The translations under genes and the position numbers were made by a program. This document shows positions 4,722-55,340 of a DNA stretch of 64,000 nt, piece after piece. The notes beneath the pieces are model-generated. The model was not told the origin of the DNA. It made no database searches and was given only the letters and a program-made list of their open reading frames with translations. The DNA is from Nitrosopumilaceae archaeon (GTDB lineage Archaea; Thermoproteota; Nitrososphaeria; Nitrososphaerales; Nitrosopumilaceae), in contig CBDATR010000024.1 in the NCBI GenBank assembly GCA_965200155.1, forward strand, positions 448,673 to 512,672, read 5' to 3'. The number at the start of each line of letters is the position of its first letter. The first letter of the stretch is position 1.

Positions 4722-5390
4722 AGTTGGGAGACATGGATGTCATTTATTAAATTGTGAGGTATGCGGCGAACGTAACAGTTTATGTCTCACAAGTTCGAAT
4801 ACAAGCTTGCCGGGATAGTGGAAGACTGACCATTTTCAAAATACGTTTGTTTATTGCGAACCTGTTCTCTGAGCACACATTTGCCACAGACTTGTGTAAC
4901 ACGTCATAAACACTGGCAGCCTGGATCAGAGTATGGCGAAGGTGACCCAAATGGTCACTACAGGAACCGCTCATGACGGTAGTAAATGCTTACTCTGTAA
5001 TCCGGGCCCTTGGCAGTGACCAAGGTCATTGTACAATTGCTCTGTTATTGAGATTGATGTGACGCGATGGAGCAGTATACGCTATGACTGACAGAAGCAT
5101 ATCCTCTGTGTAGTATGTTTAATGTACGCGTAAACCCACTACAAATCTTGGATACCAACTTATGGTATGAACTCGCCACCTCAAATGGGGATCTCTGGGT
5201 GACCTAAAAGGTTACAATAAAACTCAGTAGGAGATTTAAATTGAAAAGAAAGGCAGTAGTATGAGTTCACGTGTTTTGATCATTCACTAAGATATAGATT
5301 GGCATGACAATATTTTACTTAAATACCAAATTTGCAATAAGAATCTAATGAGAAGACGCCGGTCCTATAAGGAATTGGAACTGAAAAATA

Positions 5391-5480
5391 GTATGAGTTC
5401 ACCTGTGTCTAAATTTACGCACAACTGATCGCGACAGTTAATGTGATTTGTGCACGATTCCGGAAGACGTGAACTCATAC
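5391..5480. mobile_element. 92-bp-family MITE (90 bp)
   Basis: TIR gtatgagttcac; near TSD gaaaaata/aaaaaata. Confidence 0.88.
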
Positions 5481-5505: not shown

Positions 5506-5607
5506 CTTGCGTCTACCAAGAAAGAACTTGCACATTACAAGGCAGGGGCCATGGGCCGCCTTGTCCTACGTCTTGCGGCTACCGAGAAAGATCTTGCACA
5601 TTACAAG
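5506..5607 (+). CRISPR. CRISPR-like mini-array inside IS66 transposase (2 repeats, one 30-bp spacer)
   Basis: 36-bp repeats 5506-5541 and 5572-5607 (second degenerate); spacer is a deleted version of the last spacer of the 52173-52425 array. Confidence 0.65.
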
Positions 5608-10267: not shown

Positions 10268-10501
10268 GATGGGTAAGTTGTTTAATAAAATAAATGTCGC
10301 CAACGAGGTTGTAGGTACTGACTCGGAGATACTAGGTGAGGAGCTCATGCCAAAACAATTCAACGATAATTACACCAAGATAAGAAAGATGGCGTATGAG
10401 TTCACGTGTTTTGATCACATAATAAGATAGAATACATCCCAGTTTTTTAATTATAACTGCATTCTGGCAGCAACCTCGTTCATTACAGAAAGGCCTTGAG
10501 C

Positions 10502-10600
10502 GTATGAGTTCACCTGTGTCTAAATTTACGCACAACTGATCGCGACAGTTAAAGAACCGGTTCTTTTGTGCACAAGATTCCGGAAGACGTGAACTCATAC
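10502..10600. mobile_element. MITE (99 bp, with palindromic scar)
   Basis: TIRs; TSD ccttgagc. Confidence 0.92.
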
Positions 10601-10707
10601 CCTTGAGCCCTCCATGTCTGAACGCATGATACGAATGTAGACATGCGGCGCATTGCCCTTTCGCCACCCTTTATCTGGCCACCAATCTTGCGGAATACCA
10701 CTGCGTA

Positions 10708-12162
10708 TCAGAACCGGTTCCACTGCTCCGCTGGATTGTTGGTGGGCTCTACACTGTCATATTCTAAGAATACGAACATGCCTGGTATGGCCTTATTCAA
10801 TCCTTTTACCTTCTTTTGTAGTTCAGTATCATCAACATCACAGTACTGATGCAGAATGGATTCTGCTCCTGTCTCAAATGAGTGTCGTAATTGCGCGGAC
10901 GGCCCGCAGTGATTCAGGGATTCCCGTGCGCTCCGGAACAATCCTTTCAGGTCGTTGTCAAGTTTGATCCGGGCGTCCTGAGCACCGGGATCGATATAGA
11001 ATCCTGCATGTAATGCCTGGGTATCGCGCAATAAATGCGCCCAACACAACTGGTGCTTCCCACCGTCATCAAACCGGCGGTACACAACGTACCTGTCCGT
11101 TACTATCGCTCCCTGGTAACCGTTCAGGTATTTGTTCACTACATTTGAACTCCTACTTTTGTCATATATGGACATCATCCACTCTTCGGCTCGCATCCCC
11201 CATACCCAGCCACGCCTACCCGCCAGTGATATACCAGTTTCGTCCACATGAATGCTGGGTGATTTTATTATATTTTCATGAATTGTTTCCATAAATGATT
11301 CACATGCATCGGCGGCCCTGGCAATTATGTTGTTTACTGCACCCACCGATATATTTAGGCCGAAGAGATCCTTCGAAATTACAGGTATGCGTTTTATTGG
11401 AATCTTTTCTGCGCGTAATGCAGTGATGGCACCGCATAATTGAACCCCAAAACTACCACTCTTTGGGACGCCAGCTGCTGGGGCCAGTTGTTTTTTGCCG
11501 CACATACATGCAGCCATTTCTATCATATGGTGGGCCTCCTCTATTTTGGCTGGTATTAATTCCGTTATGTGTCGTTGTTTCCAACCAATTTTTGTCATCA
11601 TATTGCCGCACTCACATATTGGTGTGTACTCAAAGGTGTGATGCACTACTCTGCCGGGGTTGTGGGAACGGGAAACCCCCTTGTGTCCCTTTTGAGCGCC
11701 AGCCTTTTTGGCTGATTTCGTACTGGCTTCTTTCTGTTGCTTATTATCTCCCTGTTTTCGCTTCTGCTCCTCCTGTTTTCGCTTCTTGTACTGGAGGGAT
11801 TGAAGGGATGGTGGCGAGTGAGCATTCTCATAATATTTAAGTCGCGTTGTGAGTACCACAATTTTCCCCTGTTTTTCTTTTAATTTCTCATTCAATTCAT
11901 TTACATAATTCCTAATAATTTGGAAATCTTGTGTGAGATTTCGTATTTCTTTTATGATGCGGGACACATATGCTTCCAATACTCTCACACGTTCCTTGTA
12001 ATGTGCAAGATCTTTCTTGGTAGACGCAAGCAAGCGACTCATTCGCAGTGTCGCCCCGCCCAAATACTTGTAATGTGCAAGATCTTTCTTGGTAGACGCA
12101 AGGGTATCCTGAAGAAGTTTATTTTCCAGTTCCAATTCCTTATAGGACCGGCGTCTTCTCAT
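10708..12162 (-). CDS. IS66 DDE transposase, C-terminally truncated by a scar
   Basis: Coiled coil, NAHSPPS, GAQKGH, CxC zinc, HVDETG, TDRY, QLCWAHLLR, EPTNNPAE. Confidence 0.9.
   Translation of the reverse strand: MRRRRSYKELELENKLLQDTLASTKKDLAHYKYLGGATLRMSRLLASTKKDLAHYKERVRVLEAYVSRIIKEIRNLTQDFQIIRNYVNELNEKLKEKQGKIVVLTTRLKYYENAHSPPSLQSLQYKKRKQEEQKRKQGDNKQQKEASTKSAKKAGAQKGHKGVSRSHNPGRVVHHTFEYTPICECGNMMTKIGWKQRHITELIPAKIEEAHHMIEMAACMCGKKQLAPAAGVPKSGSFGVQLCGAITALRAEKIPIKRIPVISKDLFGLNISVGAVNNIIARAADACESFMETIHENIIKSPSIHVDETGISLAGRRGWVWGMRAEEWMMSIYDKSRSSNVVNKYLNGYQGAIVTDRYVVYRRFDDGGKHQLCWAHLLRDTQALHAGFYIDPGAQDARIKLDNDLKGLFRSARESLNHCGPSAQLRHSFETGAESILHQYCDVDDTELQKKVKGLNKAIPGMFVFLEYDSVEPTNNPAEQWNRF
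11995..12102 (-). CRISPR. CRISPR-like mini-array inside IS66 transposase (2 identical repeats, one 36-bp spacer, in frame)
   Basis: Repeats 11995-12030 and 12067-12102; unique spacer 12031-12066. Confidence 0.7.
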
Positions 12163-12660
12163 TAGATTCTTATTGCAAATTTGGTATTTAAGTAAAATAT
12201 TGTCATACCAATCTATATCTTAGTGAATGATCAAAACACGTGAACTCATACAAGATGGCCACAAAAGATGGTGCCAAAACCATAATTGAATCACTAGAGC
12301 GGGAGTCGGATATGATGCCAAATACATCACCACTAAATGAGCTTAGAAAGTTCGTCAAGAAGCGTGGTATAGATAGTATGAGCGAATTCCCAATGGGGCG
12401 CAGAGCAGGCAAGCGCGGCAAGCGGGAGATTATACTATCCTATAAAGAAAAAGGGGGCATGTATATTTTGTGACCTATGACAGGAACAAGAAGAAGGCGA
12501 AAGTACCGGATGATGAATCTGAACTTGTCCGGCGATTACAATGTGTCCCTGACACAGAGTCTTATTTGTCGGAAGACGGACCGAAACACAGGGAATCATT
12601 CATGACTTTATTGGAGGTAGACAAGGCCGCTCGTAAGAAAATTATGGAACGAAATGAATT

Positions 12661-50756: not shown

Positions 50757-52576
50757 GTACGAGTTCACGTGTTTTGATCACATAATAAGATAGAATGCAT
50801 CCCAGTTTTTTAATTATAATTGCATTCTGGCAGCAACCTCGTTCATTACAGAAAGGCCCTGAGCCCGCCATGTCTGAACACATATGGACATGCGGCGCAT
50901 GACCCTTTCACCACCCTTTATCTGGCCACTAATTTGTATGAGTTCACGTCTTCCAGAATCTTATGTACAAATCACATTAACTGTCGCGATCAGTTATGCG
51001 TAAATTTAGACACAGGTGAACTCATACACTAATTTTGCGGAATACCACTGCATATCAGAACCGGTTCCACTGCTCCGCTGGATTGTTGGTGTGCTCCACA
51101 CTGTCATATTCTAGGAATACGAACATGCCCGGTATGGCCTTATTCAACCCTTTTACCTTCTTTTGCAGTTCAGTATCATCAACATCACAATACTGATGCA
51201 TCTGCTCCTGCCTCAAATGAGTGTCGTAATTGCGCGGACGGCCCGCAGCGATTCACGTGCGCTCCGGATCAAATCGTTGTCAAGTTTGATCCGGGCGTCC
51301 TGATCACCGGGATCGATATAGAATCCTGCATATAATATACTGGTATCGCGCAATAAATGCGCCCAGATGGTGCTTCCCACCGTCATCAAACCGGTAACAC
51401 ATAACGTACCTGTCTGTGACTATCGCGCCCTGGTGACCGTTCAGGTATTTGTCCACTACATATGAACTCCTACTTTTGTATATCCTCCACTCTTCGGCCC
51501 GCATCCCCCATATCCAGCCACGCTTACCCGCCAGTGATATACCAGTTTCGTCCACATGAATGCTGGGTGATTTTTTCATAAATTGTTTCCATAAATGATT
51601 CGCATGCATCGGCGGCCCTGGCAATTATGTTGTTTGCCGCACCCACCGATATATTCAGGCCGAAGAGATCCCTCGAAATTACAGGTATGCGTTTTATTGG
51701 AATCTTTTCCGCACGTAATGCAGTGATAGCACCACATCTCAAACCACCACTCTCTGGGACGCCCGCTGCTGGGGCTAGTTGTTTTTTGCCGCACATGCAG
51801 GAGGCCATCTCTATAACATGAAGGGTCTCCTCTATTCTGGCTGGTATTAATTCTGTTATGCGTCGTTGTTTCCAACCACTTTTTGTCATTATATTGCTGC
51901 ACTCACATTGTGGAGTATGCTTAAAGGTATGACGCATTATTCTGTCGGGGTTGTGGGAACGGGAAACCCCCTTGTGTCCCTTTTGCGCGCCAGCCTTTTT
52001 GGCTGATTTAGTACTGGCTTCTGTCTGTTGCTTATTATCTCCCTGTTTTCGCGTATGAGTTCACCTGTGTCTAAATTTACGCACAACTGATCGCGACAGT
52101 TAATGTGATTTGTGCACAAGATTCCGGAAGACGTGAACTCATACCCTATGCTTCCAATACGCTCACACGTTCCTTGCAATGTGCAAGATCTTTCTCGGTA
52201 GCCACAAGACGTAGGACAAGGCACATGTTGCCCATGGCCCCTGCCTTGCAATGTGCAAGTTCTTTCTTGGTAGACGCAAGATTCCGTGCGGCGATATGGA
52301 TCTGAAGCAACAACGACCTTGCAATGTGCAAGTTCTTTCTTGGTAGACGCAAGGAGAGGCTCGCATATAATGAATCGCGTGCCCGTGACCTTGCAATGTG
52401 CAAGTTCTTTCTTGGTAGACGCAAGGGTATCCTGAAGAATCTGAATTTCCCGTTCCAATTCCTTATAGGACCGGCGTCTTCTCATTAGATTCTTATTGCA
52501 AATTTGGTATTTAAGCAAAATATTGTCATACCAATCTATACATCTTAGTGAATGATCAAAACACGTGAACTCATAC
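50757..52576 (-). mobile_element. IS66 element, degenerate, with MITEs at 50936-51027 (TSD actaattt) and 52053-52144
   Basis: Both TIRs; frameshifted transposase; deletion next to the 52053 MITE. Confidence 0.9.
52173..52425 (-). CRISPR. CRISPR-like array inside IS66 transposase: four 36-bp repeats, three unique spacers (36, 37, 36 bp)
   Basis: Repeat CTTGCGTCTACCAAGAAAGAACTTGCACATTGCAAG at 52390-52425, 52318-52353, 52245-52280 (identical) and degenerate terminal copy 52173-52208. Confidence 0.8.
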
Positions 52577-53870: not shown

Positions 53871-53962
53871 GTATGAGTTCACCTGTGTCTAAATTTACGC
53901 ACAACTGATCGCTACAGTTAATGTGATTTGTGCATAAGATTCCGGAAGACGTGAACTCATAC
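53871..53962. mobile_element. 92-bp MITE
   Basis: TSD attacgtt. Confidence 0.93.
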
Positions 53963-54379
53963 ATTACGTTTTTTCGATAATGTGTTCCTGTCTACATTTT
54001 TGAAGTGTTTAATTAATTATTTTAAGCGTAACAGTTATAGCTGAAAATATTATTTAATAAAATATGTCTGAAACCCTACAGATAACAAGAAAGTAACCTA
54101 TGGGAGGTCATTAGACCTTATGCGCATGATTGACAGTAACAGCCCATGTTGCGTATGAGTTCACGTCTTCCGGAATCTTGTGCAAAAATCACATTAACTG
54201 TCGCGATCAGTTGTGCGTAAATTTAGACACAGGCGAACTCATACACACAATCAGTCAAGCATGAACAATGTGAATGGCACCTGCCAGGTATGAGTTCACG
54301 TCTTCTGGAATCTTATGCACAAATCACATTAACTGTCGCGATCAGTTATGCGTAAATTTAGACACAGGTGAACTCATAC

Positions 54380-55340
54380 GCATGTGCGGCAAAAAACAAC
54401 TGGCCCCAGCAGCGGACGTCCCAGAGAGTGGTGGTTTTGAGATGTGGTGCCATCACTGCGTTACGTACGGAAAAGATTCCAATAAAACGCGTACCTGTAA
54501 TTTCGAGGGATCTCTTCGGCCTGAATATATCGGTGGGTGCGGTAAACAACATAATTGCCAGGGCCGCCGATGCATGCGAATCATTTATGGAAACAATTTA
54601 TGAGAATATAATAAAATCACCCAGCATTCATGTGGACGAAACTGGTATATCACTGGCGGGTAAGCGTGGTTGGATATGGGGGATGCGGGCCGAAGAGTGG
54701 ATGATATACAAAAGTAGGAGTTCATATGTAGTGGACAAATACCTGAACGGTTACCAGGGCGCGATAGTTACAGACAGGTACGTTGTGTATCGCCGGTTTG
54801 ATGACGGTGGGAAGCACCAGTTGTGTTGGGCGCATTTATTGCGCGATACCAGTATATTACATGCAGGATTCTATATCGATCCCGGTGATCAGGACGCCCG
54901 GATCAAACTTGACAACGATTTGAAAGAATTGTTCCGGAGCGCACGTGAATCGCTGCGGGCCGTCCGCGCAATTACGACACTCATTTGAGACAGGAGCAGA
55001 TGCATCAGTACTGTGATGTTGATACTGAACTGCAAAAGAAGGTAAAAGGATTGAATAAGGCCATACCAGGCATGTTCGTATTCTTAGAATATGACGGTGT
55101 GGAGCCCACCAACAATCCAGCGGAGCAGTGGAACCGGTTCTGATACGCAGTGGTATTCCGCAAAATTAGTGGCCAGATAAAGGGTGGTGAAAGGGTCATG
55201 CGCAGAATGTCCATATGTGTTCAGACATGGAGGGCTCAGGGCATTTCTGTAATGAACGAGGTTGCTGCCAGAATGCAATTATAATTAAAAAACTGGGATG
55301 CATTCTATCTTATTATGTGATCAAAACACGTGACTCATAC
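54380..55340 (+). mobile_element. IS66 3' fragment
   Basis: Transposase remnant and right TIR. Confidence 0.87.

Follow-up and report, generated by a model that had tools for sequence, protein, structure and literature searches.

The 64,000-nt stretch considered here (contig CBDATR010000024.1 of assembly GCA_965200155.1, Nitrosopumilaceae archaeon, positions 448,673 to 512,672 of the forward strand; hereafter, the window) contains copies of an insertion sequence (IS) of the IS66 family. In one of these copies, at 52173-52425, the transposase gene holds four 36-nt repeats separated by three spacers, i.e., a mini-array resembling a CRISPR array. The parts of this array, together with the beginning of the transposase gene, are as follows:

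52173..52208, minus strand: repeat R1, degenerate, with four mismatches relative to the others; the trailer-like end
52209..52244, minus strand: spacer Sa, 36 nt, read as the oldest; common to 13 other IS loci, often as a 30-nt deletion variant
52245..52280, minus strand: repeat R2
52281..52317, minus strand: spacer Se, 37 nt, only in this IS copy; the transposase open reading frame (ORF) breaks here
52318..52353, minus strand: repeat R3
52354..52389, minus strand: spacer Sf, 36 nt, only in this IS copy; the reading frame is kept
52390..52425, minus strand: repeat R4, the one closest to where the IS ends and the transposase begins; same sequence as R2 and R3
52426..52486, minus strand: first 20 codons of the transposase (MRRRRSYKELE...), from the start codon to the array

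Repeats R2, R3 and R4 are exactly identical, and successive repeats start 72, 73 and 72 nt apart. The 36-nt repeat, allowing up to three mismatches, has six matches in the window vs. none in 100 shuffles. The three spacers are mutually unrelated (the best ungapped match over all shifts and both strands is 13–14 of 36–37), and Tandem Repeats Finder, as would be expected of such a structure, reports nothing at the array. Translated on the minus strand, the repeat encodes LASTKKELAHCK, about 20 codons into the ORF. The sole degenerate repeat, R1, is the one farthest from the IS end, whereas R4 lies 151 nt from the end of the IS terminal inverted repeat (52576). An earlier note on this DNA, made from the letters alone, had described four 36-bp repeats with unrelated spacers of 36, 37 and 36 bp, placed about 150 bp from the left end of the IS, with degeneracy confined to the distal repeat and with the repeat doubling as coding sequence; the coordinates and the pairwise spacer comparison agree with this description on every point. 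By analogy, R4 would be the site of the newest integration. The public data over the window are contigs, in which rare alleles, starts and strand are not visible; only bins bridged by a listed piece count as evidence here. One such contig of 153 nt spans 52120-52272, i.e., the end of a miniature inverted-repeat transposable element (MITE), R1, Sa and part of R2, and was found in four runs from two studies, with no difference from the window in three runs and one difference in the fourth.

The genome assembly comprises 51 contigs (numbered C1, C9 and so on below) and 2.38 Mb, and is 87.6% complete. The IS repeat occurs in it at 66 loci, of which 51 have one copy, eight have two, six have three and one, the window array, has four. 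The 51 single-repeat loci are empty sites, i.e., sites without a spacer. Six distinct spacers (Sa–Sf) were found in the multi-copy IS loci. Sa, present as 36 nt and also in a 30-nt deletion form, occupies 14 IS loci and always lies at the far end. In one lineage, Sb (36 nt) stands between Sa and the IS end; it is kept in at least six IS copies, and one locus has two Sb units in tandem, which recombination between repeats would be expected to produce. Otherwise ordinary copies hold Sc (37 nt) or Sd (36 nt), each with an identical repeat on either side. A 36-nt spacer together with a 36-nt repeat adds exactly 24 codons and so keeps the frame, which applies to four of the six spacers; the other two (Se and Sc, the latter at C10:83012) are 37 nt long and break it, and one Sb variant carries a TGA stop. 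At 530 aa, the transposase ORF on C43 is the longest of its kind in the genome, and it reads in frame through the repeat, the 30-nt form of Sa and the second repeat, and in the second IS copy of the window the ORF likewise continues through repeat, Sd and repeat. This IS family contains another target, which is empty in the window (near 50903-50939) and was hit twice elsewhere. In a subfamily of the IS (C10:16384, C10:267631, C24:251557 and others), the array site carries a 21-nt in-frame tandem duplication (LASIKKDIEDYKKDLAHYK) within ORFs of 515 aa, which is a different type of change at the IS hotspot.

As to the origin of these spacers, Sb matches the host chromosome at 36 of 36 positions (C24:21284), with TTG on the 5′ flank, and a candidate source of Sa is the non-IS site C1:23455-23490, which is identical to it at 30–31 of 36 positions. 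Se and Sf have no second match anywhere in the genome. The earlier note had suggested looking for sources among viral, plasmid and metagenome sequences; the array was compared with phage and plasmid collections, and two IUPAC patterns of the repeat core with JGI metagenome contigs, and neither comparison gave a match, although these collections may lack records close to this genome. That note had also allowed that the spacers might be diverged IS-derived or locally slipped sequence, or broadly distributed in length across IS copies. The spacers are unrelated to one another, two of the six trace to host DNA elsewhere, and all six measure 36–37 nt.

The earlier note found no cas gene in the window and proposed a search for cas1 and cas2 beyond it. 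Cas1 is matched only once in the genome, by a Cas4-Cas1 fusion on C9, a contig other than that of the window. This protein has 549 aa with full-length Pfam matches to both Cas4 and Cas1, and is followed by Cas2 (91 aa) and then by a canonical array of 289 repeats, past which lie Cas3g, a Cas3-extension protein, Csb2 and Csb1, i.e., a type I-G system by NCBIfam names. The canonical repeat is 36 nt long and recurs with periods of 73 (101 intervals), 72 (85), 74 (63), 71 (16) and 75 nt (15). Cas4-Cas1 is 58–63% identical to the proteins of relatives, and its conserved cysteines, RecB motifs and Cas1 motifs are kept despite 48 lineage-specific substitutions, so that the adaptation module is, to judge by its predicted proteins, apparently intact. 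A defect in Cas4-Cas1 was considered as the cause of a loss of fidelity and offers no lead, the conserved motifs being intact. An IS5-family transposase lies directly upstream of csb1 (C9:98700-100750), in the expected place of Cas8g/Csx17, of which no remnant was found there. The cas operon itself carries a short array at the cas1-cas2 junction (C9:70403-70587), in which three copies of a 37-nt segment covering the cas1 stop and the cas2 start enclose two 37-nt spacers. Both of these spacers are host-derived, with matches of 37/37 at C10:291114-291150 and 36/37 at C24:421310-421346.

A scan of the genome for near-exact direct repeats of 30–45 nt with unique DNA between them, at start-to-start offsets of 36–199 and with the canonical array excluded, returned 70 loci at offsets of 71–75 (5, 30, 19, 10 and 6 loci, respectively), whereas any other offset from 45 to 199 gave 0–6 loci. 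The duplication is 36–37 nt long in 51 of the 70 loci, and the insert is 35–37 nt long in 49. Setting aside three protein tandem repeats, which were dropped afterwards, the loci divide into 11 at the IS site and 56 at other places, and the 56 include one that copies another. There are about 61 distinct inserts, and about 55 non-IS sites, each with a different 'repeat'. The distribution of periods does not differ between the ectopic units and the canonical array (chi-square p = 0.14). Several multi-copy elements have been hit by different spacers at one position, which shows that the target sites are not random.

The inserts of these ectopic units are in large part traceable. Among the 70, 39 match the genome elsewhere, leaving 28 independent self protospacers once copies of units are removed. 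These 28 show 94–100% identity over 30–38 nt and lie mostly on other contigs, ruling out local slippage. TTN stands beside nine of the 28, on either flank, vs. 3.6 on average at random (P = 0.007). Fourteen of the 28 (from 28035 to 478564) are on contig C10, which makes up 22.7% of the genome (p = 0.0014), and this excess could reflect a replication origin, a terminus or a break-prone region. None of the 288 canonical spacers, by comparison, matches the host genome; a single one matches outside the array, over 23 nt, and that match is to an ectopic insert. An ectopic insert (C25:4760-4868) and a canonical spacer (C9:75221-75246) share 26 nt in a shifted register, and the two apparently come from overlapping pieces of one source that is absent from the genome.

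The sites that were hit share features at both ends. Counting from each boundary towards the middle, the preferred bases are T (+3), G or T (+4), C (+5), G or C (+11) and C (+12); the canonical repeat and the IS repeat both fit this motif at both ends. The effect of whole-repeat identity is real but small (ectopic targets share a mean of 14.0 of 36 positions with the canonical repeat vs. 12.7 for random, p = 6e-8), and a weight matrix of the end motifs was therefore used. It was trained on 42 non-IS, non-junction targets, with the canonical repeat left out of the training, and served to rank 4.75 million genome sites, with the following results:

Canonical first repeat: 9.7 bits, top 5e-5
IS repeat variants: 5.1–8.4 bits, top 5e-3 to 2.4e-4
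Training-set median: 5.0 bits, top 5.5e-3

The reconstructed empty site of the variant found in the window array scores 7.1 bits. When 110 flanking sequences of the ectopic sites were searched for a motif resembling a leader, the best 6-mer had p = 4e-4, a value that does not withstand correction for the roughly 2,900 tests.

The distribution of the retained units with respect to genes is also uneven. Of the 56 reconstructed empty sites, 14 fall in a stop-free frame of at least 150 aa, vs. 991 of 1500 random positions (p = 4e-10), and periods divisible by three are found at 36 of 70 ectopic loci vs. 100 of 280 canonical intervals (p = 0.02). The scarcity of sites in long frames and the excess of periods of three both point to the loss of disruptive insertions.

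A duplication of the length of the host repeat around an insert of the length of the host spacer is the signature of Cas1-Cas2 integration. The array in the IS66 transposase gene is therefore best explained as the product of off-target (ectopic, or neo-CRISPR) spacer integration by the host type I-G Cas4-Cas1/Cas2, to which we assign a probability of about 0.88. The earlier note had recognised the hallmarks of Cas1-Cas2, which are supported by the repeat and spacer lengths, the 51 empty sites and the host sources of two of the six IS spacers; among the options it listed, that of an ectopic neo-CRISPR sink is the one which the genome-wide scan and the target matrix back. In the mechanism we propose, the integrase would strike a 36-bp segment within the transposase gene twice, in staggered fashion and 36–37 bp apart; this segment would mimic the true CRISPR repeat at either end. 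Gap repair would then leave the 36 bp duplicated around a prespacer of 36–37 nt, and repeated hits at the one site would build up the array of four repeats and three spacers. The same process would have marked about 55 other sites of the genome, the cas1-cas2 junction included, with about half of all inserts taken from host DNA. Units with 36-nt spacers would keep the transposase frame and spread by transposition, and the putatively oldest spacer has reached 14 IS loci. Two features make a hotspot of the IS site, namely a fit to the motif at both ends and a copy number of about 66 in the genome. The earlier note's 'mobile array' is partly right: the oldest spacer does occur at 14 IS loci, in one of which the 530-aa frame runs intact through it. 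We take the units to be, most likely, scars without an immune role and not functioning CRISPR loci. Spacers matching the host perfectly are kept in ectopic units, whereas none is present in the canonical array, from which we infer that the ectopic units are not made into guides. Alternatively, interference may be off, with the canonical array perhaps no longer used.

Several observations weigh against this reading. The assembly is in 51 contigs and 87.6% complete. TTN is present at only 9 of the 28 protospacers, and an unexplained RTA is present at 7 of the 28 (P = 0.008). The target matrix is weak, with at most 0.38 bits per position, and by itself greatly underpredicts how often the IS site has been hit: our own arithmetic puts six independent acquisitions in 66 copies thousands-fold above the genome-wide rate per position, so that the site has some further attraction. 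Four of the six IS spacers, Se and Sf included, have no source in the genome, the phage and plasmid collections or the JGI metagenome contigs, and the public contig pieces listed reach only from R1 through Sa to R2, so that Se and Sf are not individually shown in them. Cas8g/Csx17 was found neither in the genome nor among the small ORFs beside csb1, a result which does not imply absence, as the family control matched none of 14 control genomes. In two same-genus genomes with a Cas4-Cas1 fusion, the first 400 kb of each contains no such units, whereas about 10 per 400 kb would be expected at the density seen here; of these two, one has no offset events at any offset, and the other has 45, every one at an offset that is a multiple of three. 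Some peculiarity of this lineage is unexplained.

A rival reading of the array is that the IS is a working mobile mini-CRISPR, in which a transcript from the transposase promoter would yield CRISPR RNAs (crRNAs) for the host Cas proteins, e.g., against competing elements. The array does lie in sense orientation, 60 nt past the transposase start codon, and would thus be co-transcribed with the gene; the newer IS spacers are on the side of the promoter and the IS end; the IS repeat ends in ATTGCAAG, which resembles the canonical ATTGAAGG; and the IS repeat has upstream of it (−36 to −28; window 52426-52470) the 9-mer GAATTGGAA, which is present in the canonical leader too (−41 to −33; C9:70970-70978), a match whose chance we estimate at about 1%. 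However, when the IS repeat is compared with that of the canonical array, as the earlier note had advised, the two agree in length (36 nt) but share only 16 of 36 bases, which is not what a repeat processed by the host machinery would show, and their predicted folds differ, the canonical repeat forming an 8-bp stem with a 12-nt tail ending in ATTGAAGG and the IS repeat pairing end to end. Moreover, Sb, with its perfect match to the host chromosome beside TTG, would be self-targeting if processed, and the roughly 55 unrelated sites with the same geometry have 'repeats' that are all different, so that no single processing enzyme could recognise all units. This possibility is thus very unlikely, and the earlier suggestion that IS copies serve as a source of crRNAs is without support. 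As for the suggestion that the IS end acts as a leader, the three later spacers all lie on the IS-end side of Sa, which is weak evidence, given that chance alone would produce this about once in six times and that the far repeat, where additions could otherwise have gone, is degenerate; among the ectopic sites there is no shared flank motif. A leader role is thus not supported by these data. Nor do the data favour host defence, in which insertions would be directed to this site to disable the transposase. Although the two frame-breaking 37-nt spacers (Se in the window and Sc at C10:83012) and the Sb variant with its TGA stop would have this effect, the other four of the six spacers are 36 nt long and keep the frame, the longest transposase ORF (530 aa) itself holds an in-frame unit, Sa has spread to 14 loci, and the non-IS sites have been hit likewise, with no sign of aiming at the IS. 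The deliberate poisoning of the IS which the earlier note had envisaged is accordingly unsupported, and we regard it as even harder to credit.

Two further explanations dispense with Cas altogether. Replication slippage, template switching or some unknown integrase could have produced the units, with the CRISPR dimensions being coincidental, and it is true that half of the inserts are host DNA, that a protospacer adjacent motif (PAM) is present at under a third of protospacers and that relatives with the same Cas type are without units. Yet the peak of ectopic periods at 71–75 coincides with the canonical 72–74 and the duplication equals the repeat length, the sources lie mostly on other contigs, which excludes local slippage, the target matrix ranks the canonical repeat at 5e-5, the genome has a single Cas1 homologue, and an ectopic insert overlaps the source of a canonical spacer by 26 nt. 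A Cas-independent origin is therefore extremely improbable. That the units are an artefact of assembly or sequencing might be suspected in a fragmented assembly of 51 contigs and in a region dense in IS and MITE copies, but units of one exact geometry are found on many contigs, and contigs of three runs from two studies show part of the array with no differences. We know of no artefact in which a 36-bp segment would be duplicated so as to enclose 36 nt from a distant locus, and consider this the least probable explanation of all.

The IS copy that carries the array, its neighbours in the window and the associated MITEs are located as follows:

50758..52576, minus strand: whole IS66-family copy carrying the array, with a DDE_Tnp_IS66 match and a fragmented ORF
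52553..52576, no strand assigned: IS terminal inverted repeat at the transposase-start end
52053..52144, no strand assigned: MITE with IS-like termini, 92 nt, immediately downstream of the array, where it stands in for about 190 nt of transposase gene
about 50937-51027: second MITE inside the array-bearing IS copy
11995..12102, minus strand: equivalent site in the second IS copy, with two identical repeats around the 36-nt Sd (12031-12066), in frame
5506..5607, plus strand: equivalent site in the third IS copy, with a repeat, a 30-nt Sa variant and a degenerate repeat
52053-52144, 53871-53962, 54153-54247, 54288-54382, 50937-51027, 10503-10601 and 5388-5480: MITE copies in the window

The Pfam family DDE_Tnp_IS66 is matched with E = 2.7e-25 in the neighbouring copy and with E = 3.2e-7 in a fragment of the array-bearing copy. 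Complete copies of the IS, which have inverted termini, are about 1.8 kb long and contain a single ORF of 508–530 aa, without the accessory tnpA/tnpB of canonical IS66 elements; the IS resembles what we take to be a single-ORF IS66 subgroup. The second IS copy (10387-12252) is bounded by an 8-bp target duplication, AAGATGGC, whereas the flanks of the array-bearing copy (50758-52576) have no matching 8-bp duplication, suggesting a rearrangement between IS copies. The array-bearing copy is dead, because a MITE replaces about 190 nt of its transposase gene; it also contains the second MITE and the 37-nt frame-shifting spacer, and its ORF is in pieces. An inverted partial IS copy is found 2.6 kb away, its arms (51500-51798 and 54380-54687) being 96–97% complementary. 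The MITEs form a family of about 92–101 nt that share their terminal inverted repeats with the IS66-family element and are located in and around IS copies. One MITE copy has AGAACCGGTTCTTTT at window 10551-10566, where other copies have another short stretch, and this matches a near-palindromic GAACCGGTTC scar; the letters of AGAACCGGTTCTTTT recur as the loose ends of public contigs at window 52103.

The genome encodes an archaeal AmoA, and the window stretch was found in sponge-metagenome runs of two studies, none of the runs being on record as RNA; the organism is read as a sponge-associated ammonia-oxidising archaeon. Among 31 genomes (this one and 30 relatives), 14 have Cas1, and fusion-sized frames are present in four same-genus genomes. 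The IS has 86 matches in this genome vs. none in nine other same-genus genomes.

Off-target integration that seeds neo-CRISPR loci has been reported for Escherichia coli overproducing Cas1-Cas2, as rare events (Nivala, Shipman & Church 2018, Nat Microbiol, as cited in 10.1101/148544, PMC7054753 and PMC9456107), and the natural evidence, from two other species, is called circumstantial (10.1101/148544). The likeness is that a spacer is placed outside the array, a repeat-sized piece of the target is duplicated and repeated hits can seed an array. The differences are that the E. coli events were obtained by overproduction in a laboratory strain, whereas the present case is a wild archaeal genome with about 61 distinct units, a type I-G Cas4-Cas1 and many self-derived inserts; the hotspots here are in a transposase gene and at the cas1-cas2 junction, and units have spread by transposition. 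With Pyrococcus furiosus Cas1-Cas2 in vitro, integration at non-CRISPR sites is described as favouring repeat-like sites, with paired attacks one repeat length apart and uncontrolled spacer orientation (PMC6698737). Conserved bases at set positions, especially at the repeat borders, are common to both cases, but the P. furiosus substrates were plasmids and the repeat 30 bp long, whereas here the sites are chromosomal with a stagger of 36–37 bp and a consensus of T3, G/T4, C5, S11 and C12 from each end (PMC6698737).

The closest adaptation module in terms of enzyme is that of type I-U from Geobacter sulfurreducens, for which TTN is reported as the PAM, at 50% of unique new spacers, and 36 bp as the main spacer length (PMC6547450). 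That module and the host I-G array share with the ectopic units the Cas4-Cas1 fusion, the 36-bp spacers and TTN beside some protospacers (9/28 here) (PMC6547450). Relative to both, the IS array differs in its repeat and fold, has no adjacent cas genes or recognisable leader, and holds some spacers from the host chromosome.

Short arrays on mobile elements are also known as the mini-arrays of archaeal viruses. CRISPR-associated transposons likewise carry mini-arrays on mobile elements, and the likeness is that a short repeat-spacer array rides a mobile element (PMC11300857). Those arrays have bona fide repeats that serve a Cas effector, whereas here part of the transposase coding sequence, duplicated by mis-integration, plays the role of 'repeat'. 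Full-text searches of the literature returned neither a wild genome bearing dozens of such events nor an array that grows within a transposase gene.

A bolder view, which we put forward only tentatively and consider rather unlikely as a whole, is that CRISPR arrays are here being born in the wild: a type I-G integrase largely freed of leader control would place spacers throughout the chromosome, about half of them taken from self, and an IS-borne proto-array would be copied by transposition while adding in-frame segments of 24 residues, such that its transcription and processing, if they occur, would turn the IS into a means of creating and spreading CRISPR loci. If off-target integration by the host enzyme is the correct explanation, the genome would provide a natural record of a type I-G integrase acting without selection for immunity, including its target motif, its spacer sources (about half self) and its use of the PAM, together with a view of how a new array originates and is moved by an IS. 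It would also make the cost of CRISPR adaptation measurable, given that 14 of the 56 retained units lie in long open frames vs. 66% of random positions, and would offer an explanation for in-frame insertions of 24 residues in proteins.

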